A stretch of DNA of 47,403 nucleotides from a virus. Position numbers and translations under genes: made by a program. Numbering within the stretch: position 1 is the stretch's first letter; every line of letters begins with the position of its first letter. The notes beneath the pieces are model-generated. The model searched no databases. It was not told the DNA's origin and was given only the letters and a program-made list of their open reading frames with translations. The stretch lies in the IMG/VR virus record IMGVR_UViG_3300011438_000005, positions 1-47,403 of that record; one strand, given 5' to 3'. Of the stretch, positions 1-12,569 are shown piece by piece.

Positions 1-123
1 GCACTCGTGAATCTCGATGGCAGCCATCTCGCTCGGGTGCAATGCTGCCTCCCTCTCCCACCTGTCCGCCAGCTTCGCCAGCTTCTTTCGCAGGTCACTC
101 ACGGCGGTCCCCCTGGGAGGCGC
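1..123. repeat. Terminal direct repeat, left copy (identical to 47281-47403); unique genome length 47,280 bp
   Basis: Base-by-base comparison of the first 123 nt (gcactcgtgaatctcgatgg ... ccctgggaggcgc) with the last 123 nt shows no mismatch. The repeat contains the stop of CDS 95..538 and the GTG start (102, equivalent to 47382) of CDS 47068..47382, so an operon reads across the junction. Confidence 0.97.
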
Positions 124-538
124 CGGCGGGCAGAAGGAACTCGCCGAGCAAATGGCGCGCGCGCGGAACGGCCTCCCGGTCAGCCCATGCGCGGTTCAGT
201 CCGGACGGGTGGGGGAGCAGGTAGAGCTGCCCCTCGACTACCGTGAACGGCGCGTAGGGCAGCCCGAACGCGCTGCACACCTTCGCCCCGAGCAGCACCA
301 GCGGCGTACCGCGGGCGGCCCGGAGATCGCTCGCGGCGGCGCGGGCGGTGCGGATCCGCCAGGGACCACAGCAGAGGTTCACCCGGTCGAACCGCCGCAG
401 GTACTCGGTCCGCGACAACCCGAGGATCCGCGCCAGCCGCCCCCCGGAAGCGTTCGGTGGCAGCGGATACAAGGCGAACTCGGGCCGATTGCCGTAGGGG
501 TTTGCCTCACCGATCAACAGCGGCTTGGGGTCGCTCAC
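95..538 (-). CDS. Uracil-DNA glycosylase superfamily protein, MUG/TDG-like motifs (147 aa)
   Basis: Track ORF 95..655 trimmed to GTG 538, which has a GGGGGAG RBS just upstream and a GTGA overlap with the stop of 535..732. Motifs LLIGEANPYG and LLPHPSGLNRAW fit the two UDG-superfamily signature motifs. By eye they are closest to family 2 (GINPG ... NPSGLS), with Asn rather than Asp in motif 1. Confidence 0.7.
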   Translation of the reverse strand: MSDPKPLLIGEANPYGNRPEFALYPLPPNASGGRLARILGLSRTEYLRRFDRVNLCCGPWRIRTARAAASDLRAARGTPLVLLGAKVCSAFGLPYAPFTVVEGQLYLLPHPSGLNRAWADREAVPRARHLLGEFLLPAGASQGDRRE

Positions 539-732
539 GGCTCCCCCTGGGAGGCGGGCGCCCCGGCACAGGCCAAACACGGTGGGCACTTCTTGCAGTC
601 GCCGCGGGGAGCGTCGTGCTTGTGGCACACGTCGCAGAAGTTCCCGCGCCCGCACTGGCGGCAGCGGTAGATCAGGGCGAACGTGGGCTCCGTGCAGTTG
701 CCGGTCCGCGTGTGCTCGATGCGCTTGCTCAT
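535..732 (-). CDS. Small Cys-rich protein, putative zinc-binding (65 aa)
   Basis: Track ORF 535..846 trimmed to ATG 732 (ATGA overlap with the upstream stop). It has 9 Cys in CxxC-like spacings (CRQCGRGNFCDVC, CKKCPPCLAC). The extension upstream of ATG 732 is R/G/P-rich. Confidence 0.65.
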   Translation of the reverse strand: MSKRIEHTRTGNCTEPTFALIYRCRQCGRGNFCDVCHKHDAPRGDCKKCPPCLACAGAPASQGEP

Positions 733-947
733 GTCGCTCCCTGGTCCTTGCTCGGGTCGCTCACCTCGGGGTCCTCGACGTTGGTTCCGCCGTACTTCGC
801 AACGATCCGGTCCATGCGCTCCCTCTCCTTCGCGACCCGGGCGCACACGCGGCAGGGCGTGCCGTTCGGCTCGGTCCCGAGGTATCGGGAGTCGCGTCCG
901 CAGAGCGTGTGGGCCGCGTCGGACGGATTGACGGTGTGCCGGCTCAC
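729..947 (-). CDS. Hypothetical small protein (72 aa)
   Basis: Track ORF 729..1070 trimmed to GTG 947, with a GAGG RBS 7 nt upstream and a GTGA overlap with the stop of 944..1612. Amino-acid composition is ordinary from that point on. Confidence 0.6.
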   Translation of the reverse strand: MSRHTVNPSDAAHTLCGRDSRYLGTEPNGTPCRVCARVAKERERMDRIVAKYGGTNVEDPEVSDPSKDQGAT

Positions 948-1612
948 GGCTTCACCTCGGGGTCCGCCGGGGTCTCCGGAGCGGAGGCCAGGGTCCGGGC
1001 GCGGGCCCTCCATGCGGCCGACTCCACCACCATCTCGTGCGCCGCCTCCGGGGACCGGTGGAGCGCCCACATCAACGCGTCGTCCGCCTCCCGTAGCAAC
1101 GCGAGCGCCTCCTCCAGCGCCTTCTCGCGCGTCGAGCGGACCAGCGGGAGCGGGGCGGAGGCGGCACCCTCACGTCGTGCGGCCTCCAGCCTTGCCGGCC
1201 ACGGGGACTTCGGGCAGGCGGTGGCTAAGTGCTCAATCGCCGCGTCGTTGTTCCGCAGCGGCATGTCGCAGTAGGCGCAGGTGACGACGAGCCCATAGGC
1301 GCGCGCCGGGTGGTAGCGGACGGTGACGGCCGAGAAGCCGCAAGCGCAGGGGCGACCCTCGACCAACACGTGCGCCCCTTCGTTACCGGGGACCGGGCAC
1401 GGGGGCGCCCCCGACTCCACGGTCAGTTCACCGGACGGCTGGGGCCGCGTCTCAGCCGGGGGCGAGGGAGCGGGGGGTGAGGGAAGCGGCCTCCAATCGA
1501 TGCACCCCGGCATGCGCACGTGCGGGAGACCGTTCCCCCACCCGGGCGCGTAACAGGTTCCGAGGACGGCCTTGTCGGGTGCCGGGGCTCCGCTCGTCTC
1601 GGGGGCGCTCAC
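944..1612 (-). CDS. Hypothetical protein, Cys-containing (222 aa)
   Basis: Track ORF 944..1681 trimmed to GTG 1612 (GTGA overlap with the stop of 1609..1857). Third codon positions are G/C-rich. Confidence 0.6.
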   Translation of the reverse strand: MSAPETSGAPAPDKAVLGTCYAPGWGNGLPHVRMPGCIDWRPLPSPPAPSPPAETRPQPSGELTVESGAPPCPVPGNEGAHVLVEGRPCACGFSAVTVRYHPARAYGLVVTCAYCDMPLRNNDAAIEHLATACPKSPWPARLEAARREGAASAPLPLVRSTREKALEEALALLREADDALMWALHRSPEAAHEMVVESAAWRARARTLASAPETPADPEVKP

Positions 1613-1857
1613 GGCGTCCGCCCGCTGGCCTCGGCGGCCCGCTTCAGCACCATGACGAGGCGCATCGCCTTCAGCGGCCACCCCGGCTCGTCGTCGCGGC
1701 TTGCGTTGCGCACCAGGGTTCCGTCCTCCACCAGGGCGAACAGGTCTCGTAGCGCAGCCCGCGCTTCGTCCCTCTCCGCAAGGACCCGATCGATCCCAGA
1801 GCCGACCTCTTGCATCCCAGCCATCAGCGCATCATTCGTCCCGCTCGTCTCAGCCAT
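1609..1857 (-). CDS. Hypothetical protein (82 aa)
   Basis: Track ORF 1609..1914 trimmed to ATG 1857 (MAETSGTNDAL...), which overlaps the upstream stop by 8 nt. Confidence 0.6.
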   Translation of the reverse strand: MAETSGTNDALMAGMQEVGSGIDRVLAERDEARAALRDLFALVEDGTLVRNASRDDEPGWPLKAMRLVMVLKRAAEASGRTP

Positions 1858-2077
1858 GGCGATCACCTCGGGCGGCGGCGAGAGCGGCGCGGGCTGCGGC
1901 AACCGTCTCGTCATTCGACCGCTGCTCCAGCCACGGCAGGGCCAGGGCGAGCGCTTCGTAGAGGTCCGGAGCCGCGGCCTTGAGGAGTCCGTCCTTGCGC
2001 TCCGCGACCAAGATCGGCGCGCCGCAGGACTTGCAGCGCACGGCGCCTTCTAGTTCGTCATTCGTCAGGTCGTTCAT
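1850..2077 (-). CDS. Hypothetical small protein with CxxC (75 aa)
   Basis: Complete track ORF. A GGAGAG RBS lies 6 nt upstream of ATG 2077. Confidence 0.7.
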   Translation of the reverse strand: MNDLTNDELEGAVRCKSCGAPILVAERKDGLLKAAAPDLYEALALALPWLEQRSNDETVAAARAALAAARGDRHG

Positions 2078-2090
2078 GGCGTTCTCTCCT

Positions 2091-2528
2091 TCAGTTTCGC
2101 AGCTTGCGGGGTAGGCGCCGGGGCGGACCGGCGAGCGGCTCTCGGGCCGGCCGGTCTCCTGGGTCCTTCACCCTCGGGGACTCCTTCGTCTCCACCTCGA
2201 CCACGTGAACCACCGCGACCGACATGAAGGTGACCGGGGGGTGCTCCTTGGGCGGGGCGAGCTCCACTCCCCGCGCCCTCGCCTCGGCAACGATGCGCGG
2301 CAGGATGCGATCGGCGACCGCCTGGGCGAGCTCCTGGATCCCGGCGTCCATCTGCATCCGGAGGTACCGAGCGGAGACCTCGAGCGCGGCGAGCATTTCG
2401 ACGCCGTCGTACCCCCCATCTTGCGCGCCCTGGCACATAGCGGAGCCCAGCGCCCGGCACCGACTCGCGAGCTCGTTCTTCATCGCCTCCGGCAGGACCA
2501 CCCAGTTTTGCACGCACTTGTCGCACAT
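2091..2528 (-). CDS. Hypothetical protein (145 aa)
   Basis: Track ORF 2091..2837 trimmed to ATG 2528 (MCDKCVQNW...), 2 nt after the stop of 2531..2779. The discarded N-terminal extension is an Arg/Pro-rich shadow. Confidence 0.6.
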   Translation of the reverse strand: MCDKCVQNWVVLPEAMKNELASRCRALGSAMCQGAQDGGYDGVEMLAALEVSARYLRMQMDAGIQELAQAVADRILPRIVAEARARGVELAPPKEHPPVTFMSVAVVHVVEVETKESPRVKDPGDRPAREPLAGPPRRLPRKLRN

Positions 2529-2530
2529 GG

Positions 2531-2779
2531 TCAGTGAGCTCCCTCGGTCGAGAGACCGACGCTGGTGAGGTACTCGACGGCGATCTCGTCGGCGAGCTGG
2601 TCGAGTTCGGGGACGAGCTCGGGGTCGAGGCCGGCCTTGAACCCTCGGGCGATCGCGAGGCACGCCACGTACACAGCCGCGAAGTCGGAGCCTCCGGCCT
2701 TCGGTGGCGTGGCGTGCACGAACCGGCGCAGGTAGGCCCGCACGATCGACTCGAAGCGGAGCCGCTCGAAGGCGGTCAC
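2531..2779 (-). CDS. Hypothetical protein (82 aa)
   Basis: Track ORF 2531..2866 trimmed to GTG 2779 (GTGA overlap with the stop of 2776..3048). Confidence 0.6.
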   Translation of the reverse strand: MTAFERLRFESIVRAYLRRFVHATPPKAGGSDFAAVYVACLAIARGFKAGLDPELVPELDQLADEIAVEYLTSVGLSTEGAH

Positions 2780-3048
2780 CGGGCCGGCTCCGGCGCGCGC
2801 GCGACGGCGGCCTCGAGGCGGAGCAGCCGGTCCGCAAGGTGCTGGCACCCCCGAATCTGGTTGCACGCCGGGCAGAAGACCTGGCGCGGCGGGGCGCCGA
2901 TGGCCTGGATCCTCGGCAGGGTGTCGACCATGCGCAGCTCGAGCTCCTCCACGTAGCGCACGAGCTCGACCGCCTGCGCGCCGGTGAGGTTCGGTTTCAC
3001 ACTGAGGCGCAGGGCCTCGGTCAGACCCTCCAGAAACGCGGGTCTCAT
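2776..3048 (-). CDS. Hypothetical protein (90 aa)
   Basis: Track ORF 2776..3339 trimmed to ATG 3048 (ATGA overlap with the stop of 3045..3368). Sequence begins MRPAFLEGLTEAL and contains CPACNQIRGC. Confidence 0.6.
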   Translation of the reverse strand: MRPAFLEGLTEALRLSVKPNLTGAQAVELVRYVEELELRMVDTLPRIQAIGAPPRQVFCPACNQIRGCQHLADRLLRLEAAVARAPEPAR

Positions 3049-3368
3049 CGGCGTCCTCTCCGCCCCTGGTTGCGCTTCCACTTCTGCGCGTCGGGGCACG
3101 TCTGGTGGTGGGCGGTGCGCGGCCGGGCGCCCTCCGGTGGCGCCTCGGCGGCCTTTAGGACGAACGCGACGATCGCGCCGTCGCGGTCCATGCAGATCAC
3201 GCGGCCGTCGGGGTTCGGCTGCCAGTCGACGGGCATCACCTGGGCCTCGAGGGTCGCGAGGTTGCACCGCCGCGGCTTCATCTTCACGGTCTTCCGATCG
3301 TCCTCGAGGACCTGCGCCCAGAGGATCGCCGCACCGCAAGAGCGGCAGACCTTGGGCTGGTGGCTCAC
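3045..3368 (-). CDS. Hypothetical protein with CxxC ... HxxC (107 aa)
   Basis: Track ORF 3045..3539 trimmed to GTG 3368 (GTGA overlap with the stop of 3365..3643). Confidence 0.6.
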   Translation of the reverse strand: MSHQPKVCRSCGAAILWAQVLEDDRKTVKMKPRRCNLATLEAQVMPVDWQPNPDGRVICMDRDGAIVAFVLKAAEAPPEGARPRTAHHQTCPDAQKWKRNQGRRGRR

Positions 3369-3643
3369 GGTTCCCGGACCTCGAAGACGCGGTCGAGGTA
3401 CCAGCGCGGCGGGTCGCCCGGCTCGCGCAGGAAGCGCAGCACGAGGCCGTCGCCCTCGAAGTAGCAGAGGCCCATCACGTCGGACCCGAGATAGTGCGGG
3501 TACACGAAGAAGACCTGGCGGAGCTGGGCGGTGGGGCACTCCGGGCCGCTCGTCTCGATGTAGTAGAGCTGCTCGACCCGGAGCTTGGAGTCACAGGAGA
3601 CGAGGGCCGCGGCGAGCAGCGCGGCGAAGATGGCGCGCCTCAT
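3365..3643 (-). CDS. Small putative lipoprotein (92 aa)
   Basis: Track ORF 3365..4186 trimmed to ATG 3643 (ATGA overlap). The N-terminus MRRAIFAALLAAALVSCDSK has a positive n-region, a hydrophobic core and an LVSC lipobox. Confidence 0.7.
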   Translation of the reverse strand: MRRAIFAALLAAALVSCDSKLRVEQLYYIETSGPECPTAQLRQVFFVYPHYLGSDVMGLCYFEGDGLVLRFLREPGDPPRWYLDRVFEVREP

Positions 3644-3960
3644 GACTTCGGCTCCGCACGGACGAAGCGAGCGCCCAGAAGAAACCGGGTCACCCAGGGC
3701 CGCCCGCGGCCGCGCCCGCGGATCATTTCCCGCGCGACCTGGCGGACGATTCCGGGCGTCGCGAGCGCCTCGCGAAACATCGCCTCCTTGAGGATCCGCA
3801 CGTCCTCCTCGAGGACCATCCCCGGCGGGGCCAGGTGCTCCGCCTGGAGCTCCCCCACCCACCGCTCCCACCAAGCGGACAGGGCGTCGACCCTGGCCTG
3901 CTCGCCTTTCGTGCTGGCGACCTTCAGGAGCTCTCTCTCGGCATCCGACGTCGGGATCAT
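3640..3960 (-). CDS. Hypothetical protein (106 aa)
   Basis: Complete track ORF. ATG 3960 makes an ATGA overlap with the stop of the HNH gene. Confidence 0.7.
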   Translation of the reverse strand: MIPTSDAERELLKVASTKGEQARVDALSAWWERWVGELQAEHLAPPGMVLEEDVRILKEAMFREALATPGIVRQVAREMIRGRGRGRPWVTRFLLGARFVRAEPKS

Positions 3961-4445
3961 AGCCGCACCCTCCTCTCCACGTATGATATCCCCGCCCTCT
4001 CACAGTAGAGGCGACGCCTCTCGTTCCAGGGACGGCGGTCCTTCGCGTTCGTCTTCTCCTCGTGGCACTCGGGCAGCAGGCGCCACCCGTTCGCGCGGGT
4101 GTCCGCTCCGCCCTGGCTGCGCTCGACCCAGTGGTCGCACTCGCCGTGGGTGTACGAGCGGAACGGCCTCCCGCAACCGCAGTCACACCGGCCGTAGTAG
4201 GCGGATCCTGGCACCGAGGTGTGAACCAGGTTCCACGCCCATACCTGGTCGTGCATGTCCTCGAGGGCCTGCGCCTCGGCGCTCTCCTTCCGGCGCCGGC
4301 GAGTCTCGAGGTGGACGATCGAGACGATCGGTCGCTTCTCGGGGGCGGCGCGCGGCGAGCGTAGGAGGAGGCCGCAGGCGCGGCGATCGCCAGCGCGGTC
4401 GCGTTCCTTCAGGTAGGCGACGACGTCGCGCGTCCAGGCGTTCAC
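3957..4445 (-). CDS. HNH endonuclease (162 aa)
   Basis: Track ORF 3957..4523 trimmed to GTG 4445 (GTGA overlap). The block CDCGCGRPFRSYTHGECDHWVERSQGGADTRANGWRLLPECHEEKT has the Cys pair, His, Asn and His spacing of the HNH (beta-beta-alpha-metal) motif. Confidence 0.75.
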   Translation of the reverse strand: MNAWTRDVVAYLKERDRAGDRRACGLLLRSPRAAPEKRPIVSIVHLETRRRRKESAEAQALEDMHDQVWAWNLVHTSVPGSAYYGRCDCGCGRPFRSYTHGECDHWVERSQGGADTRANGWRLLPECHEEKTNAKDRRPWNERRRLYCERAGISYVERRVRL

Positions 4446-4615
4446 GGCCGGAGCTCGAGGGCAAGGACGAACATGGAAAGCGCGACGAGCGCCCAGAAGG
4501 CGGCGAACCCGAGCGCCTTCCACCGACAGGCCGGGCAGCAGGGCGGCACGCCCACGCGGTAGAAGGCCTCGGCGCCGACGACCGGGCGGCGGCAGTATTC
4601 GCAGGCGTCGATCAT
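4442..4615 (-). CDS. Small membrane-anchored zinc-ribbon-like protein (57 aa)
   Basis: Track ORF 4442..4792 trimmed to ATG 4615 (ATGA overlap). It has CEYC ... CCPAC followed by the hydrophobic C-terminal helix ALGFAAFWALVALSMFVLAL. Confidence 0.6.
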   Translation of the reverse strand: MIDACEYCRRPVVGAEAFYRVGVPPCCPACRWKALGFAAFWALVALSMFVLALELRP

Positions 4616-4815
4616 GGCTCGAGGTCCCTCTCGGTGACGCCGGGCGGGAGGTGGTAAGTCTCGACGCGCACGCCGCCGAAGAGGATCGGGTTCACGACCG
4701 TCGGGCAGGTCCCGAGGTGCGGGGGAGCGCCGCCCGGTGCGAGTACGACCTGAGCGTCGAGCCGCCGAAGCAGCAGGTAGGTGGAGCGGCATCCGGGGCA
4801 GAGCAGGGCGATCAT
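4612..4815 (-). CDS. Hypothetical small protein with CPGC (67 aa)
   Basis: Track ORF 4612..5046 trimmed to ATG 4815, which has a GGAGGA RBS about 7 nt upstream. Confidence 0.6.
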   Translation of the reverse strand: MIALLCPGCRSTYLLLRRLDAQVVLAPGGAPPHLGTCPTVVNPILFGGVRVETYHLPPGVTERDLEP

Positions 4816-4868
4816 GTTCGCGTCCTCCTGGCCGGCGCGGAGCTCGAGGGCTCCGCGCCGGGCCGGTC

Positions 4869-5513
4869 TTACTTCCGCTTCTCGGGCGGGCCCTTGAGGT
4901 CGCCCTTGGTCATGGAGCCGTCGCCGGCGTTCTTGAGCTTCGCGTCGGCGAGCTGCTCGAGCTGGTGCTGGCGGCAGAGCTTCTTCCCGTCGCCGGCGTT
5001 CAGGTGGGTCGCGAGGATCTTCCCCCGGCCCTTGTAGGGCGCCCACCGAACGGTGAAGTCGCCGTCGGCGGTGCGCTCGAGGTGGTACTCGCCTTCAAGC
5101 ACCACCGCGACCATGAGGTCGGTCCCGTTCGTGAAAGAGAGCTCGGGGACCTCGGCCTCGGCCCGCTTCACCTCGGCCGCGGCCTTCTTCGCCTCCGCCT
5201 CCTTCTCCTGCTCGGCCTCCTTCCGGTCCACGATCCCGCCCGCGGCCTCGAGGATCCTCCGGACCAGCGGGTCGTTCTTCGGCGCCGGCTTCTCGGTGCC
5301 CGGGATCTGGAGCTGCTCGAGGTCCTGGCCCTTGAGCTGGCGGCGCACGAGGGCGACCGACCCCCGGAGCGCCTTCACGTGGCCGGAGAGGATCTCGGCG
5401 ACGGCCTTCTTCTTGTCGACCGCCGCGTCGGCCTCGTCGAGGAGGTCCTGGAGCTTGTCGAGCAGCTCCTCCTCGAGTTCCTTCGTGAGCTTCGCGTTGC
5501 GCTGCTTCCCCAT
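4869..5513 (-). CDS. Hypothetical coiled-coil, Lys/Glu-rich protein next to the recombination genes (214 aa)
   Basis: Complete track ORF with an AAGGAG RBS upstream of ATG 5513. No recognisable catalytic motif. Confidence 0.75.
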   Translation of the reverse strand: MGKQRNAKLTKELEEELLDKLQDLLDEADAAVDKKKAVAEILSGHVKALRGSVALVRRQLKGQDLEQLQIPGTEKPAPKNDPLVRRILEAAGGIVDRKEAEQEKEAEAKKAAAEVKRAEAEVPELSFTNGTDLMVAVVLEGEYHLERTADGDFTVRWAPYKGRGKILATHLNAGDGKKLCRQHQLEQLADAKLKNAGDGSMTKGDLKGPPEKRK

Positions 5514-5519
5514 CTGGAA

Positions 5520-6833
5520 TCACTCCTTTCGTTTGTGGACCTTCACCTGGCCCCCCACGAGCGTCCGCAGGAGACCCCTCTTCGCGAGCTCGGCTTCTGC
5601 CTTCTCGCGCAGCTCCTTGATCGCTCCCTTCCTCGCCTCGGCCGGCCGGACCGCGAGGTACGCTTTCACGGCCGCCTCGATCCCGCCGAAGGTGCCCTCC
5701 ACCTTCACGCCCTTCTTCGCCGCGTCCTCCCCGAAGAGCTCGTCGAGCACCTCGTACACGAGGTTCCCCTCCCCGAGCTCGCGCTCGGTCGCGTCCGGGG
5801 GCACGCCGTACCAGCGGCCCGTTCCGTCGGTGAGCTGGAAGGGGGTCTGCCTGGCGTAGTTCCTGATCGCGGCCTTCACCTTCTCGAGCAGCGCCTCGGC
5901 CGGCGCGAGCAGGGCGTGGATCCGCGGCGCGGAGACCTCGTCGAGGTACTGGGCGCCCACCTTGGCGACGCCCTGGAGCTCGTCCGAGTCGCCGCCGATG
6001 ACCGCCCGCGCGATCGCCATCTGCGCCGGGCAGAAGCGGAGGTGTGGGCAGTAAGAGCAATGGGGGCCCACCTCCCCGGGCGGCAGGTCGGCCGGGTCCT
6101 TGGCTAACGCCTCCCGGTTCTTGCGCGCGAGGTCGGCGCGGTCCTGGAGGCGGAGCTCGAAGCGGTCCAGGTCGGCGACGGTGAGGCGGTAGGCCGGCTC
6201 GAGAAAGACCTCGTCGCCCATCACCCGGATCGCCTCGAGGTCGACCCACGACCGGCCGTAGGCGCGCGCCGCGGCGAGGGCGGCCGCGAGAAATTGCTCG
6301 TCCTCGGCCGGGTGGCGCCGGTGGCTCCGGCCCTTGTAGTCGCCCACGTAGAGGCCGTGGTTCCCGACGAGGGAGACCCGGTCGATCGTGCCCACCACCT
6401 CGGAAGGGGCGACCTCCCCGTACTCCCGCGCGAGGCCTCGGCCGATCTCCCGGCCCTTGCCGGTCTCGAGGTCGAAGGCGAAGGCGACCTCTCCCGCGAC
6501 GTTGTCGAGCTGCACGCGCTCGAGGGGGATGCAGGCGAGGACCTCCTGGTGCTCGGGCGGCGCCTCGGCGAGAGCGAGCTCGCGCGCCTCGTCGCGGCTC
6601 GCCTGGCGGATCTGCTCTCCGAGGTCCTTCCCGCTCTCGGGGTCCTTCACATTCTCGATGCGGATCGCCGCCGGGTCCTGCATGAGCTGGGCGATTCGCT
6701 CGAAAAAGGTGTGCCGCGCGGTGCCGATCCGGGCGTCCTCACTGGGCTCGTCGATCTTCGGCAGGACGTCGGTGAGCTCGCACCGGAACCAGCGCGGCAG
6801 GCCGGAGAAGGTGGGCAGGCGGGTGGTCGTCAT
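5520..6833 (-). CDS. PD-(D/E)XK nuclease with Cas4/AddB-type four-Cys cluster (RecB-family exonuclease, 437 aa)
   Basis: Track ORF 5520..7421 trimmed to ATG 6833 (ATGA overlap with the ERF stop). It has IDRV ... LYVGDYKG (D ... D-x-K). An N-terminal Cys (RWFRCEL) plus the C-terminal CSYCPHLRFC gives the C-Xn-C-X2-C-X5-C pattern of Fe-S Cas4-like nucleases. Confidence 0.75.
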   Translation of the reverse strand: MTTTRLPTFSGLPRWFRCELTDVLPKIDEPSEDARIGTARHTFFERIAQLMQDPAAIRIENVKDPESGKDLGEQIRQASRDEARELALAEAPPEHQEVLACIPLERVQLDNVAGEVAFAFDLETGKGREIGRGLAREYGEVAPSEVVGTIDRVSLVGNHGLYVGDYKGRSHRRHPAEDEQFLAAALAAARAYGRSWVDLEAIRVMGDEVFLEPAYRLTVADLDRFELRLQDRADLARKNREALAKDPADLPPGEVGPHCSYCPHLRFCPAQMAIARAVIGGDSDELQGVAKVGAQYLDEVSAPRIHALLAPAEALLEKVKAAIRNYARQTPFQLTDGTGRWYGVPPDATERELGEGNLVYEVLDELFGEDAAKKGVKVEGTFGGIEAAVKAYLAVRPAEARKGAIKELREKAEAELAKRGLLRTLVGGQVKVHKRKE

Positions 6834-7771
6834 GGCGAGACGGTCTCCTTGGGGTAGCGGGTGGCCTGGTACTTCTCCTCGAGCTCCTTGCGGCGCGCGT
6901 CGGCGGGCAGCCTCGGGAGGGTCTCGAGCACGGTCCGCCAGTCCCTCTTCGTGATCGCCTCGGCGATCAGCTCGGCGAGCGCGTCCGGAGTGGGCTTCTG
7001 CTTCGCTGGGCCCGGGAGGGAGCCCTGCTTCGCGGCCAGGTCGGCCCCGGCGCGGCGCAGGCCGTCCGCCTCCGTGGGCGTGAGGGCCGGCCCGTCGAGC
7101 GCCGGGCCCTCGAGCTCGGGGTGCTCGGGCTCGTCCTTGCGGCCCGTGTGGCCCTTGCAGTCCTTCGCCGTCGCCGCGGTCTGGTGACGTGAGCCGAACC
7201 TGCACCGGAAGTTCCCGGTTCCGGGCTGCTCGTAGGCGCCGGGCGCCCGGCGGGTCTCCTCCATCGGCAACGTCTCGCCCTCGCCGGCGTCGACGTCGGT
7301 GTCCGGCGCGATCCCGAGGAGCGCCTGCACCTGGTACCGGCGCAGGTAGGTGATCGCGATCCCGAGCGCCTTGATATCCCCGAGGTCCACGCCCACCTCG
7401 AGGACGGGGGTCCGGAACCACTCTCCGCTCTCGTGAATGAGCTCGGTCTGGAGGCGCAGGGTGGTCTGGCCGTTCCTGCTCGAGAGCTCGAAGGGCTGGA
7501 GCAGGGCGAGGCCGTTCGCCGAGAGCGCCGGCGAGATCGCCTCCCTGATCGCGGCGAGGTCCGCGTACTCGTAGGTGTAGGAGCCTCCCGCCTTCATCTG
7601 GATCCGGGCCGTGCGGTTCTTCTCGATCGGGGTGAAGGTGGCCTGGGCCTTCGCGAGCGCGGTCGCCACCGCGGCGAAGGCCTCGGACCGCTCGAGCAGG
7701 CGCGCCCGGCTGGCGATGATCTCCGCCACCGGGACGCCGAGAAAGGTCGCTACTTCGTTCGTGTGTTCCAT
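6830..7771 (-). CDS. erf: ERF-family single-strand annealing protein (313 aa)
   Basis: Complete track ORF with a GGAGGGA RBS. The block ALAKAQATFTPIEKNRTARI..GGSYTYEYADLAAIREAISPALSANGLALLQ ... ALGIAITYLRRY matches the ERF signature as I recall it. It lies adjacent to the exonuclease. Confidence 0.8.
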   Translation of the reverse strand: MEHTNEVATFLGVPVAEIIASRARLLERSEAFAAVATALAKAQATFTPIEKNRTARIQMKAGGSYTYEYADLAAIREAISPALSANGLALLQPFELSSRNGQTTLRLQTELIHESGEWFRTPVLEVGVDLGDIKALGIAITYLRRYQVQALLGIAPDTDVDAGEGETLPMEETRRAPGAYEQPGTGNFRCRFGSRHQTAATAKDCKGHTGRKDEPEHPELEGPALDGPALTPTEADGLRRAGADLAAKQGSLPGPAKQKPTPDALAELIAEAITKRDWRTVLETLPRLPADARRKELEEKYQATRYPKETVSP

Positions 7772-7794
7772 CGGGGTCCCTCCAGGACCGGGCG

Positions 7795-8010
7795 CTACGG
7801 GGTCGGGTTGGTGAGCAGGGTCAAGGGCGCCACCTTCAGTCCGCCGGCGAGCTGCTCGATCGTCTCGAGGGGTGGCGAGCGGATCCCGCGCTCGAGGGAT
7901 GAGACGTAGGACAGGGACAGGTGCGCCGCCTCGGCGAGCGCCTCCTGGCTCATTTTCTTCTTCTGCCTGGTGGTGCGCAGGTTTGCGCTGAAGTTGGACA
8001 GCAGGGACAT
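7795..8010 (-). CDS. XRE/Cro-type helix-turn-helix transcriptional regulator (71 aa)
   Basis: Complete track ORF with an AGGAGAAG RBS. The segment LRTTRQKKKMSQEALAEAAHLSLSYVSSLERGIRSPPLETIEQLAGGL is a canonical HTH_XRE pattern (SQE-LA ... S-(I/V)S-(I/L)ERG). Confidence 0.85.
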   Translation of the reverse strand: MSLLSNFSANLRTTRQKKKMSQEALAEAAHLSLSYVSSLERGIRSPPLETIEQLAGGLKVAPLTLLTNPTP

Positions 8011-8049
8011 GGGCTCTTCTCCTGTAGGTGTGGTGCTACTGGGAGAGCG

Positions 8050-8403
8050 CTACTCTATGGGTCCGACATATTGCTCGGTGAGGCATGCGTGGAGGCCGTG
8101 GACGACGCCCCAGGTCGCGAAGTTGTAGGGCCCGGAGACGGCGCCACAGTGGCACCTCCGCAGGATCGGCCCGTCGGGGCAGGCGACGCCGTGGGTGCCG
8201 CAGGGCTCGGGGTTCACCTTCACCCCGATCTGGCGCACGAGCGCGGCGCGCTCGGCTGGGTCCGGGATCCAGAAGTGCTGGGCGAAGACCTCGACGACCT
8301 CGACGCGGCTCCGTGCGCAGCCCGGGCAGCAGGTCACGTCGCGGTGGGGGCAGGCGAGGGCGCCGGTCGGGTGCTCTCTCCATCCCCGGGGAAGGCCGGT
8401 CAC
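8050..8403 (-). CDS. Hypothetical Cys-rich protein (117 aa)
   Basis: Track ORF 8050..8511 trimmed to GTG 8403 (GTGA overlap with the stop of 8400..8741). Confidence 0.6.
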   Translation of the reverse strand: MTGLPRGWREHPTGALACPHRDVTCCPGCARSRVEVVEVFAQHFWIPDPAERAALVRQIGVKVNPEPCGTHGVACPDGPILRRCHCGAVSGPYNFATWGVVHGLHACLTEQYVGPIE

Positions 8404-8741
8404 GATCTCACCGCGCCGAACAAACCGAGCTGGTCGTCGACCTCGAGGGGCGCCGGGCGCACCGGGCGCGCCGAGGGAACCCGCTTCCCGAGCCCTCCGC
8501 AGTCGCGGCACGGCTCATAGTGGGGCGGCCGGATGCGCGTGCAGGTCGACCCGGAACCCTTGCAGCAGGCGCAGGCCACGAGCAGCCGGGCCAGATCGCG
8601 CCGGGCGCGGCACGCGGGCTTGCGTCCGCCCTTGTAGTTGCGGCACGTCTCGTGGGGCGGGGCACCGCAGGTCGGGCAAACCAGCAGCAGGTCGTCCCCT
8701 GGTAGCGCGCGGATTCTCGTCGGGATCGTCGTCTCGGCCAT
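8400..8741 (-). CDS. Zinc-finger protein with DnaJ-type CxxCxGxG repeats (113 aa); first gene of the leftward unit
   Basis: Track ORF 8400..8798 trimmed to ATG 8741, with a GAGGAG RBS 7 nt upstream. Motifs are CPTCG ... C, CACCKGSGS and CRDCGGLGK. Confidence 0.65.
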   Translation of the reverse strand: MAETTIPTRIRALPGDDLLLVCPTCGAPPHETCRNYKGGRKPACRARRDLARLLVACACCKGSGSTCTRIRPPHYEPCRDCGGLGKRVPSARPVRPAPLEVDDQLGLFGAVRS

Positions 8742-8769
8742 CGGTCGGGCTCCTCTCGTGGTACGGGTA

Positions 8770-8798
8770 CACCTACTCTGGGAGAGGAGGGCCGTCAA
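8770..8798 (-). promoter_or_regulatory. Candidate leftward promoter (TTGACG-17 nt-TAGGTG on the minus strand)
   Basis: The reverse complement of 8793-8798 is TTGACG and of 8770-8775 is TAGGTG, with a 17-nt spacer. It lies about 30 nt upstream of ATG 8741. Confidence 0.35.
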
Positions 8799-8812
8799 GT
8801 CCCCTGGTGCGC

Positions 8813-8841
8813 TTGACTCAGATCCTCTGAGCGTGTAGGCA
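8813..8841 (+). promoter_or_regulatory. Candidate rightward promoter (TTGACT-17 nt-TAGGCA)
   Basis: TTGACT at 8813-8818 and TAGGCA at 8836-8841 with a 17-nt spacer, about 23 nt upstream of GTG 8864. It has the same architecture as the leftward candidate and sits back-to-back with it, 14 bp apart. Confidence 0.35.
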
Positions 8842-8863
8842 TACCGACCGAGGAGGCGACCTC

Positions 8864-9157: not shown

Positions 9158-9327
9158 CCAAGAAGGCGAAGCGGCCGCGGCGGGCGAAGCACAACTACAT
9201 CACCCCGAACCCGCCGCCAGGTTGTCGATTCATCATGGGTTTCGCGTTCTCCATCGGCTTCGGCTTCCCGATGCGCGCCGTCACCCTCTACGAACGTGGA
9301 CAGGACGAAATCGGAGGCCTCTCTTGA
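9154..9327 (+). CDS. Possible small protein (57 aa), not in the ORF track as a separate gene
   Basis: GTG 9154 overlaps the stop of 8864..9157 (GTGA), and its own TGA overlaps the TTG start of the methyltransferase (TTGA). It is in the frame of track ORF 8971..9327. Sequence is VTKKAKRPRRAKHNYITPNPPPGCRFIMGFAFSIGFGFPMRAVTLYERGQDEIGGLS. Confidence 0.45.
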   Translation: MTKKAKRPRRAKHNYITPNPPPGCRFIMGFAFSIGFGFPMRAVTLYERGQDEIGGLS

Positions 9328-10061
9328 CCCGCAACCGCGTAACCCTCGATCTCCCTTGCCTCGCCGGAGGCTGGCCGGTGGTCGTCTCTGACAGCCCGTG
9401 GCCCTTCCGGGACAAGGGCTCGCGCATCGCACCAAACCAGCGCCGGAAGCGGCTCGGCCGGAAGGGCTACCGGACGCTCACCGTCGACCAGATCGCGGCG
9501 CTGCCGGTGGGCCAGATCGTCGCGCCCGACGCGCTGCTCTTCCTCTGGACGACCTCGACGCACCTCCTCGACGGCTCCGCCTCGAGGGTCTGCCGCGCCT
9601 GGGGCTTCGAGCCGAAGGCGACGATCGCCTGGGTGAAGACCGGAGGGATGGATCTCCTGGCCTGGCTCCTCGAGCAGGCGGAGCGGTTCGGGTGGAACCC
9701 CTGGGTGGTGAAGCGCGCGGCGCGGTACCTCCCTGACGTCCGGAAGCTCCAGATCGGGATGGGGCACTACGTCCGCGGCGCGCACGAGCTCGTGCTCCTG
9801 GGCCGGCGCGGGCGGGCGAAGGTGGTCGACCGGGGCGTGCCGTCGGTCTTCTATGCCCCGCGGCGCGGGCACTCCCAGAAGCCGGCCGAGTTCCGCGACC
9901 TGGTCGACCGACTCACCGGCGGGAAGCCGACGCTCGAGCTCTTCGCCCGCGGGCCCGTGAAGCGCACCGAGGCGAAGAGCTGGACCTTCTGGGGCGACGA
10001 GGTGCCCACAGACTTGTCCACAGGGTTATCCACAACCGGGGCCGTCCGGAAAGTGAGGTGA
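9324..10061 (+). CDS. MT-A70 family N6-adenine DNA methyltransferase (245 aa)
   Basis: Track ORF 8874..10061 trimmed to TTG 9324, with a GGAGG RBS 6 nt upstream. Motifs are VVSDSPWPF (variant of DPPW), LLFLWTT, WGF ... WVK, GMGHYVRGAHELVLLGRRG and RRGHSQKPAEF, which is the MT-A70 (PF05063) pattern. Confidence 0.8.
   Translation: MTRNRVTLDLPCLAGGWPVVVSDSPWPFRDKGSRIAPNQRRKRLGRKGYRTLTVDQIAALPVGQIVAPDALLFLWTTSTHLLDGSASRVCRAWGFEPKATIAWVKTGGMDLLAWLLEQAERFGWNPWVVKRAARYLPDVRKLQIGMGHYVRGAHELVLLGRRGRAKVVDRGVPSVFYAPRRGHSQKPAEFRDLVDRLTGGKPTLELFARGPVKRTEAKSWTFWGDEVPTDLSTGLSTTGAVRKVR
10002..10034 (+). promoter_or_regulatory. Array of three DnaA-box-like 9-mers at 12-bp spacing (GTGCCCACA, TTGTCCACA, TTATCCACA)
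   Basis: Read directly as gtgcccaca gac ttgtccaca ggg ttatccaca. The third is the perfect TTATCCACA consensus and the second is the high-G+C (Streptomyces-type) TTGTCCACA. The array overlaps the last codons of the methyltransferase. Confidence 0.6.
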
Positions 10062-10091
10062 TAGCGTGAGCTTAGGACGGTCCTCGGGTAG

Positions 10092-10100
10092 TTATCCACA
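10092..10100 (+). promoter_or_regulatory. Second perfect DnaA box TTATCCACA (within a 13-bp exact repeat GTTATCCACAACC, also at 10025-10037)
   Basis: gtagttatccacaaccagc read directly. It has the same orientation as the array 66 bp upstream and lies in the 281-bp non-coding gap 10062-10342. Confidence 0.6.
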
Positions 10101-10162
10101 ACCAGCACGCCCCCCTACTACTGATCGGGTTAAGCGGAGGGGCTGGTTCTCTTCTCTGCTCA

Positions 10163-10176
10163 GATCGGTACCGATC
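10163..10176. other. Perfect 14-bp palindrome GATCGGTACCGATC in the non-coding gap
   Basis: Read directly and is self-complementary. A further GATC lies at 10123-10126. Confidence 0.5.
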
Positions 10177-10342
10177 ATCGGAGGGGGCAGGCGGCGCCCG
10201 CTGGCGGTCCTTCCCCCGCCGCTCGGCGCCCTCACCCTGGGGGCCCGCCGCCCCCCTCCGGGAGGCTTCGCCCGCCTGCGCCGCTGGCTCCGCGTCCATG
10301 TCGGACGCCGGGAGTAGGTCAACCCACACCGAGGGTCCGAAC

Positions 10343-10579
10343 ATGGCAACCCCTGAAGAACTGGAATGGCAGGCGAAGAGCATCGGCGAGCAAATCAAGG
10401 CGACGGCTCCCGAGGACGTCGGGTTCGCCATCGTCTTCTGGAACCGCCGGCGCAGCGAGGGGACCCCGGTCGCCTTCGCGAGTAACGCGGTCACCGACCA
10501 GGACAGGCGTGAGACCGTGAAGATCCTTCAGGACTTCGGCTCGAAGCTGAAGCCCTCGCAGATCATCCTCCCAAGCTGA
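10343..10579 (+). CDS. Hypothetical protein (78 aa)
   Basis: Track ORF 10298..10579 trimmed to ATG 10343, with a GAGGG RBS 7 nt upstream. Third codon positions are G/C-rich. Confidence 0.65.
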   Translation: MATPEELEWQAKSIGEQIKATAPEDVGFAIVFWNRRRSEGTPVAFASNAVTDQDRRETVKILQDFGSKLKPSQIILPS

Positions 10580-10656: not shown

Positions 10657-10920
10657 ATGACCGACAAGAACCAGGCCGAACCCCTCGTCCGCTCCTACCC
10701 CGTCGAGCCCCGCATGCAGCAGCAGATCGACGAGTGCTTCACCTACCACCCGCCGAAGCCCGACCAGGTCGGCCGGTATGTCGACCTCCGAGCGGCCGGG
10801 CGCGAGCTCGCGCTCCTCATCGCGCGCTCGTCCCCCCCCTCGAGGGCCCAGTCCGTCGCCCTGACGAAGCTCGAGGAGTCGATCATGTGGGCCAACGCGG
10901 CGATCGCTCGGGGCGAGTAG
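10657..10920 (+). CDS. Conserved phage hypothetical protein (87 aa)
   Basis: Complete track ORF. I have seen the block FTYHPPKPDQVGRYVDLR ... PPSRAQSVALTKLEESIMWANAAIA in many phage hypothetical proteins. Function is unknown to me. Confidence 0.7.
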   Translation: MTDKNQAEPLVRSYPVEPRMQQQIDECFTYHPPKPDQVGRYVDLRAAGRELALLIARSSPPSRAQSVALTKLEESIMWANAAIARGE

Positions 10921-12415: not shown

Positions 12416-12429
12416 CGCCGCACGTAGGG
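12406..12429 (+). terminator. Perfect 9-bp stem hairpin (CCCTACGTG-acgccg-CACGTAGGG) spanning the stop codon of 12161..12415
   Basis: Read directly. It has no downstream T-tract and lies at the start of the 154-bp gap before terS. Confidence 0.3.
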
Positions 12430-12569
12430 CCCCGGGCTGGACGACCCGTGCGGTTCTGCGCTACAGGGGGTGTGACCGGACGGCCCCCCAGGTCGGCCAG
12501 GGGGCGGTCTCGGGGCTTCGCCACCCCGGGACCGCCCTCTTTCTACCAGGGGGCGAGGGGCTCGACCTG

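Follow-up and report, generated by a model that had tools for sequence, protein, structure and literature searches.

The 47,403-bp stretch analysed here (the window) is the complete virus record IMGVR_UViG_3300011438_000005, an uncultured short-tailed phage of ≈71% G+C; closure of the record rests on a terminal repeat in the assembly. At the 3′ end of its MT-A70 DNA methyltransferase gene, the phage carries a cluster of co-oriented DnaA boxes followed by a GC-rich spacer, candidate DnaA-trios and an easily melted tract. We propose, with a probability of roughly one in two, that a replication origin dependent on host DnaA, of the basal unwinding system (BUS) type, has this cluster as its core; it would replace the replication module carried by relatives. 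An origin is favoured because the position, orientation and spacing of the array are conserved in eight related loci, because a spacer, GAT trios and the least stable DNA follow the last box, and because the slot is taken by replication genes in cultured relatives. The initial annotation, made from the letters of this DNA, had offered three DnaA-centred roles for the site (origin, decoy or transcriptional control); the comparative data point to DnaA as the probable ligand and favour the first of them.

The methyltransferase gene occupies 9324..10061 on the + strand (Pfam MT-A70, 9e-21; phrog_359; stop codon at 10059-10061), and its non-conserved 3′ tail (≈10002-10061) reads through the box array. 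The array opens with a weak DnaA-box-like 9-mer, GTGCCCACA (10002..10010), which has two mismatches and stands one 12-bp step 5′ of a box matching TTGTCCACA (10014..10022). One further step leads to the penultimate box, a perfect TTATCCACA (10026..10034), so that the three 9-mers follow each other on the + strand in exact 12-bp steps. An interspace (10035..10091), which includes the methyltransferase stop codon and has TAG motifs 3 and 19 nt 5′ of the last box, separates the array from that box, a second perfect TTATCCACA (10092..10100) on the same strand that points towards the trios. The 13-mer GTTATCCACAACC is present twice, at 10025-10037 and 10091-10103. Our read-out of the sequence agrees with the annotation on the 12-bp periodicity (10002, 10014, 10026), on the second perfect box at 10092 inside an exact 13-bp repeat, and on a GATC at 10123 and the palindrome GATCGGTACCGATC at 10163-10176 further downstream.

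With at most one mismatch to TTATCCACA, the genome holds three matches where 0.74 are expected, and all of them lie in the cluster. When scored against TTATCCACA and TTGTCCACA together, five matches stand against 4.9 expected and the total is not enriched. The signal is therefore clustering and perfect matching, not the number of boxes, because the total count equals the composition expectation. Of 4000 random genomes of matched composition, one contained three same-strand matches within 100 bp (P ≈ 2.5e-4). With three boxes inside 87 bp, two of them perfect, this is the sole same-strand DnaA-box cluster of the 47.4-kb genome, and a scan with one-mismatch variants found a comparable density nowhere else. 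Other parts of the initial argument fared less well. GATC was tried as a genome-wide signal and rejected, with 325 sites observed against 273 expected and three per 60 bp recurring elsewhere, so that this part of the case is weak. A cumulative GC-skew inflection does exist near 9 kb, but it is uninformative on the origin because gene orientation switches at the same place. The 281-bp gap behind the methyltransferase, described as the largest non-coding one, is indeed the largest stretch without an obvious gene, although a weakly conserved small reading frame (10066-10317) lies inside it.

A search with the methyltransferase recovered homologues at 50–59% identity, including eight syntenic loci whose methyltransferases are 50–57% identical to that of the window (L003, L004, L005, which is identical to L006, L106, L101, L102, L103 and L104). 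The common order runs from nuclease, ERF and helix-turn-helix (HTH) genes, all leftward, over divergent promoters to a variable gene, MT-A70, a gap of 183–266 bp, small genes, terS and terL. Each relative has three to six boxes (≤1 mismatch) within 200–390 bp at the methyltransferase 3′ end and gap, and the remaining 3–47 kb of each locus hold zero to three. In a control set of 80 loci whose methyltransferases are more distant (308 kb), three perfect boxes occur and do not cluster, and two non-syntenic methyltransferase loci (L107, L108) are without such a gap. The two closest terminase relatives stop short of the gap.

Across these loci the arrays consist of two or three co-oriented boxes at 11–13-bp steps, mostly 12 bp, and degenerate ..CCAC(A/G) 9-mers one 12-bp step 5′ are seen in relatives too; L103, L104 and L106 have one degenerate 9-mer instead, with well-matched boxes 35 bp apart. 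The penultimate and last boxes of the window are 66 bp apart, measured start to start; in L106 they are 55 bp apart, and the other seven relatives have 44 bp. The steps between these lengths are whole multiples of 11 bp, or roughly one turn of the helix, and suggest that the boxes keep a face-of-helix relationship. The last box, with zero or one mismatch in all eight relatives, has T..CCACA invariant in the nine-locus alignment, and CTAC-n-n-n-T (CTAC plus a T at position 8) is likewise invariant. Protein tails and spacers diverge, whereas the 9-mers, CTAC and one further T stay constant. The methyltransferase tails of the homologues are not conserved as protein, yet they hold an 'LST' that is TT(A/G)-TCC-ACA in frame. 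Four relatives (L101–L104) also have an inverted pair, TGTGGATAA-N3-nGTGGAnnn. In these four, TGT-GGA-TAA (L101 6659-6667, L102 6745-6753, L103 6790-6798, L104 6775-6783) is the Cys-Gly-stop end of the methyltransferase; because the inverted perfect box reads this way, it supplies the stop codon of the gene.

Beyond the last box, and on the same strand, lies a 14-nt GC-rich spacer, ACCAGCACGCCCCC (10101..10114), which is 13–14 nt long in all nine loci with a C-rich CCCC/CCCT-like end. It leads to the candidate DnaA-trios CTA CTA CTG ATC (10115..10126, +; opposite strand 3′-GAT GAT GAC TAG-5′). The candidate unwinding region on the + strand (10115..10191) starts with these trios and takes in the GATC at 10123, the palindrome and then GGAGGGGG. 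In nearest-neighbour duplex stability, the 60 bp from 10115 belong to the least stable 0.05% of the genome; the tract is just relatively AT-rich, at ≈55–58% G+C in a 71% G+C genome. All eight relatives have their least stable 60-bp duplex starting 0–25 bp after the last box. The single-strand fold of 10030-10200 is not unusual (z = −0.31). The trios vary between loci, with CTA CTA CTA in L103 and L104 and CTA CT(T/G) CTA in L004 and L003. Three or more trios with the required central base are found in seven of the nine loci, and L101 and L102 read CTA CGn (GAT GCn), with the second trio broken.

Further into this region, positions 10153-10191 are identical to L004 2294-2332 at 37 of 39 nt, a stretch that includes GATCGGTACCGATC and GGAGGGGG, in a pair of phages whose methyltransferases are ≈56% identical. 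A looser core, CCGATCA(T/A)CG(G/A)AGG, is common to L003, L005 and L106, and in L106 it stands without a reading frame.

The BUS of bacterial oriC consists of DnaA boxes and DnaA-trios (Richardson et al.; Pelliciari et al. 2021, PMC8287927). Its published rule calls for a box with at most two mismatches, a spacer of 0–16 nt (mode 13) and three or more trios whose central base on the bound strand is A, 3′-GAT-5′ being favoured next to the box (PMC8287927). Table S1 of that work is written as the complement, where AATAGGTGT...GATGAT corresponds to TTATCCACA...CTACTA on the top strand, and the orientation and notation of the window trios were checked against it. We applied the rule more strictly, allowing one box mismatch versus the published two. 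On both strands of the 47.4-kb genome it gave a single match, at 10092, with a spacer of 14 and four trios; it also matched the homologous site in six of the eight relatives, with GAT always as the first trio. In box mismatch, spacer, number and orientation of trios, and the easily melted tract beyond them, the window element fits the layout of a BUS.

Among the chromosomal origins of Table S1 (PMC8287927), the single-box 14-nt form is the closest. Acidovorax sp. JS42 has TTGTCCACA, 14 nt ending in GGGCT and then CTACTACTA, and Polaromonas naphthalenivorans has TTGTCCACA, 14 nt ending in TCCCT and then CTACTACTACTA..., while the Streptomyces coelicolor origin reads TTATCCACG GTATCCACA GGCC CTACTACTACTG. 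As in the first two, a TT(A/G)TCCACA box of the phage faces the trios across 13–14 nt with a GC cluster at the end, the first trio is GAT and is followed by GAT or GAC, unstable DNA lies beyond the trios, and more co-oriented boxes lie upstream. Unlike these origins, the phage element is not beside dnaA or dnaN, and it partly overlaps the end of the methyltransferase gene and, in one clade, the small frame. The one-box layout with a 14-nt spacer, together with kinship to a Bordetella phage, gives a weak lead towards a high-GC, Comamonadaceae-like host among the Burkholderiales. A search for prophages in 185,579 species genomes returned a single remote match, in Polyangiales, and gave no host.

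The Escherichia coli origin offers a second comparison. In its left DnaA oligomerization region (Left-DOR), R1 stands beside the unwinding element and is followed by an interspace bound by IHF or HU and by the co-directional array R5M, tau2, I1 and I2; the Right-DOR is oppositely directed (PMC10325909). The phage element likewise has a lone box of presumed high affinity beside the unwinding region, an interspace and then a co-oriented array, and L101–L104 also have an oppositely oriented pair further out. It differs in its 12-bp array spacing and its interspace of 44, 55 or 66 bp start to start, and neither an IHF consensus nor 13-mer repeats of the oriC type were identified in it. Iteron origins (P1 oriR, pSC101, F and RK2; PMC4980987) also place DnaA boxes beside an unwinding region, and P1 oriR has GATC-bearing repeats; they need a plasmid or phage Rep and iterons, neither of which was found in the window.

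Searches of the early, middle and late regions against Pfam and PHROGs found no initiator, helicase, primase or polymerase family anywhere in the genome, nor any Rep or O-like initiator or primase-helicase family, and the absence of recognisable phage replication genes claimed at the outset thus holds. No other iteron-like non-coding repeat family was found in the genome. The cultured phages CP2, AF and BPP-1 share the structural module and genome layout, with recombination genes in a leftward operon and, across a divergent control region, a second operon that runs rightward to terS and terL. They keep a replication function just to the right of the control region. In Xanthomonas phage CP2, the second gene of the rightward operon encodes a 'replication initiation protein'; Pseudomonas phage AF has an O-like initiator and a primase/helicase in the slot; in Bordetella phage BPP-1, the slot holds cro, the Bpm adenine methylase and, directly after it, a primase. 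In all three, DnaA-box clusters are absent. Loci with an array (nine) and those with replication genes encoded by the phage (three) thus complement each other: where the cultured phages have their own initiator, primase-helicase or both, the family of the window has the box/trio module instead. Tentatively, we suggest that a lineage of BPP-1/CP2-like phages swapped its initiator and primase-helicase module for a miniature bacterial origin and would initiate replication as a host-dependent 'minichromosome'.

We infer a mechanism in which DnaA binding, unwinding and helicase loading would together give origin activity. Host DnaA would occupy the boxes at 10014, 10026 and 10092 with high affinity and the 9-mer at 10002 weakly, all four being co-oriented. 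The 66-bp interspace (44 or 55 bp in relatives) would let DnaA bound at the array and at the last box cooperate, perhaps through a bending protein, much like R1 and R5M in E. coli. From the last box, a DnaA-ATP filament would grow over the 14-nt GC spacer onto CTA CTA CTG ATC, with 3′-GAT GAT GAC-5′ on the bound strand, and open the neighbouring least stable stretch (≈10115-10190), where the host helicase would be loaded. The phage ERF annealase and PD-(D/E)XK nuclease could serve later amplification. Initiation might be timed by the neighbouring adenine methyltransferase together with the conserved tract that bears GATC.

Several points weigh against an origin. Three or four trios are just the published minimum, and L101 and L102 break the second. 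The boxes were matched to the universal DnaA consensus rather than to the box and origin of a host. Dependence on the host's control of initiation seems a poor fit for fast lytic amplification. An unrecognised initiator could be encoded by one of the many early genes that are without an assigned function. In the clade of the window, the small frame starts right after the trios, and some of the conservation may reflect coding. The element also lies just 5′ of the next genes, where a promoter is expected as well, and in six relatives out of eight a TAG 11 nt 5′ of the last box could, as a −10, make for a DnaA-box-flanked promoter.

The small frame deserves description here. It is a possible basic reading frame at 10066..10317 on the + strand, homologous to frames of 58–64 aa in L003, L004 and L005, which share ..FFRSLLRSVPIIGGG.. 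and a ..VGR(S/R)E end. At the homologous start position the window has CGG and no canonical start codon; the sole in-frame canonical start is the GTG at 10066, from which translation would read through the last box and the trios. Third-position G+C is low in its first ≈40 codons.

Control of transcription by DnaA is unlikely, in our judgement. It would have the boxes flank or overlap a promoter of the middle operon (the small frame, the 78-aa gene and the Acb2-like gene onward), or act as an orientation-dependent DnaA roadblock after the methyltransferase; the DnaA status of the host would then time expression, CTAC would be part of the promoter or of the initial transcribed region, and a DnaA-flanked promoter would possibly be coupled to origin activation. 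The location suits such a role, 50–95 nt 5′ of the next start codon in five relatives and 10–17 nt 5′ of the small frame in three, and promoters too are typically AT-rich and unstable. TTRTCC-N17/18-TACnnn is loosely like a −35/−10 pair, although the invariant TACnnnT is one base longer than the canonical TAnnnT −10 element. The early promoters of the phage provide a yardstick. They form a divergent pair in 8742..8863 of the form TTGAC(G/T)-N17/18-TAG(T/G)C(A/G), which is conserved in relatives; transcripts from the rightward promoter would cross the methyltransferase gene and run into the array. A position-weight matrix was built from 14 such sites, which themselves score 17–24 bits; under it the last box/CTAC pair scores −8 to +3 bits and does not resemble an early-type promoter. 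The TAG 11 nt 5′ of the last box resembles the early −10, TAG(T/G)C(A/G), weakly (5.7–10.7 bits), and in the window a weak early-type score of 10.7 bits falls at 10066. Between 8300 and 13300, a simple sigma-70 scan found no promoter-like sites and a terminator scan found two terminator-like matches (8614 and 12699), both outside the cluster. Transcriptional control also leaves unexplained the two or three extra co-oriented boxes, the inverted pair of L101–L104 and the complementarity with replication genes.

A promoter class read by a phage sigma factor was considered and rejected: tblastn (E up to 0.01) found no sigma-70 region-4 homologue in the window, the composite box/CTAC motif occurs once per locus, and the gaps upstream of terS hold another element. 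A sigma factor encoded by the phage is thus unlikely to act on the box/CTAC element. All but two of the eight relatives have, between the gap and terS, a gene for a sigma-70 region-4 protein of 180–220 aa (L003 6324-6986, L005 6241-6789, L101 8311-8961, L102 9029-9658, L103 9327-9902, L104 8049-8627). The different conserved element in the gap upstream of terS is GGACGGCCCTCCACCGTC followed by a GC-rich hairpin (window 12416-12569, where its version is more diverged, L005 9572-9686, L101 10579-10793, L102 10809-11015, L103 10660-10848, L104 9385-9573), a candidate late promoter, terminator or packaging signal.

We regard it as improbable that the array is a sink or a tether for DnaA, that is, that it titrates host DnaA as phage copies build up and so stops host initiation, or holds the phage DNA to membrane-bound DnaA, with no origin firing. 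The precedent is T5, where the injection-stop (iss) region has paired DnaA boxes for which a tether to membrane-bound DnaA was hypothesised (bioRxiv 10.1101/866236); T5-like phages conserve such high-affinity pairs 3 bp apart, and a non-replicative role was proposed for them (bioRxiv 10.1101/866236), a role that is itself hypothetical. Boxes in tandem, 3 bp apart, were found in at least 119 IMG/VR contigs, and the window element shares with T5 conserved, phage-borne consensus boxes paired at this spacing. A sink or tether needs no invariant spacer and CTAC, no unstable flank and no fixed box orientation, and among the matches listed only 2 of the 119 other tandem-box contigs have the box-spacer-CTAC tail. 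The T5 pairs, moreover, lie within the terminal repeat, inside inverted repeats and far away from where the T5 origins map, in a phage that encodes its own replication proteins, and no trio-like tail has been described for them. In the window, the 3-bp spacing is present, no large inverted repeats surround the boxes, the DNA fold z-score is −0.31, and the ends of the record are those given by the assembly repeat.

One of the two listed tandem-box contigs with a box-spacer-CTAC tail, L218, is an unrelated IMGVR_UViG contig of 41% G+C whose open reading frames have no Pfam matches. At 560-800 it has a textbook example of an oriC-type module, with a pair of inverted boxes, three boxes in a direct array, TTATCCACA boxes in tandem, GCCC, CTACTACTACTG and a tract rich in AT.

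Least probable of all, and very doubtful, is binding by a phage-encoded protein (for instance, one of the small early proteins acting as an unrecognised initiator or regulator), which would make the DnaA-box match coincidence or mimicry: most early genes do lack an assigned function and relatives do encode XRE-type HTH and sigma-70 region-4 proteins, but the 9-mers keep to the universal DnaA consensus in phages with ≈50%-identical proteins and differ chiefly in the third position (A/G), the window is without the sigma-70 region-4 gene, the gene between promoter and methyltransferase is not conserved, the XRE protein would more plausibly act on inverted CTCCTC repeats at the early promoters, and the largest unassigned early protein (214 aa) shows no initiator-like fold in its predicted structure. 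The XRE repressor-like protein is the sole conserved phage DNA-binding protein common to all members of the family, and DnaA would be the most economical candidate ligand of the 9-mers. The inverted CTCCTC/GAGGAG repeats surround the early promoters, at 8742-8863 in the window and at the equivalent places in relatives, and are plausibly operators of the adjacent XRE-type protein.

The gene map around the proposed origin was built from coding-potential calls, Pfam and PHROGs. A leftward early operon (95-8741, − strand) encodes the ERF annealase, the PD-(D/E)XK nuclease, the XRE-type HTH protein, an HNH protein and many small unassigned proteins. Across the 122-bp divergent control region (8742-8863), which lies between the two operons, the rightward operon (+) starts with a 97-aa gene, a mini-gene and the MT-A70 methyltransferase, followed by the 281-bp gap, a 78-aa gene and an Acb2/Tad1-like gene. 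It continues with a 325-aa gene, two small genes (88 and 84 aa), terS and terL; genes for the portal and capsid, for internal virion proteins, for a protein of 3,639 aa, for the tail and for a lysozyme follow. The 78-aa gene (10343..10579, +), of unassigned function, is the first conserved gene 3′ of the element, with 45–57% identity in seven relatives; its product has no Pfam or PHROG family, and a fold search with its predicted alpha-beta-beta-alpha structure gave no informative match. Two genes 3′ of the element, 10657-10920 (+) encodes an Acb2/Tad1-type hairpin-domain protein (Pfam, 2e-19), likely a sponge for cyclic-nucleotide immune signals.

The conserved 214-aa early protein (4869-5513, −) adjoins the nuclease gene. 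It is predicted to have a long N-terminal helix and a C-terminal domain of four strands plus a helix; a fold search returned just weak, non-significant PUR-alpha-like matches and no initiator-like fold. The ERF/nuclease pair may have in it a partner that binds single strands. Scans of the window for tRNAs and Rfam families gave no matches, a DNA similarity search against cultured phages gave no useful match, and single-protein searches of IMG/VR gave no close relatives. CTAG is strongly avoided genome-wide, with 2 sites observed against 28.6 expected from trinucleotide frequencies.

Our literature searches found no published phage-borne origin made of boxes plus trios, the nearest cases being the paired boxes of T5 and origins predicted by software in individual papers on phages. 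If the proposed origin is real, a tailed phage would dispense with its own initiator, helicase and primase by carrying the DNA-opening grammar of its host, and this would explain how phages without recognisable replication genes are copied. It would also provide a sequence signature for origins in uncultured phages and, since bacterial groups differ in origin grammar, the signature would double as a clue to the host. The definition of DnaA-trios comes from chromosomes, and a compact phage version of ≈130 bp would be a handy substrate for tests of unwinding models.

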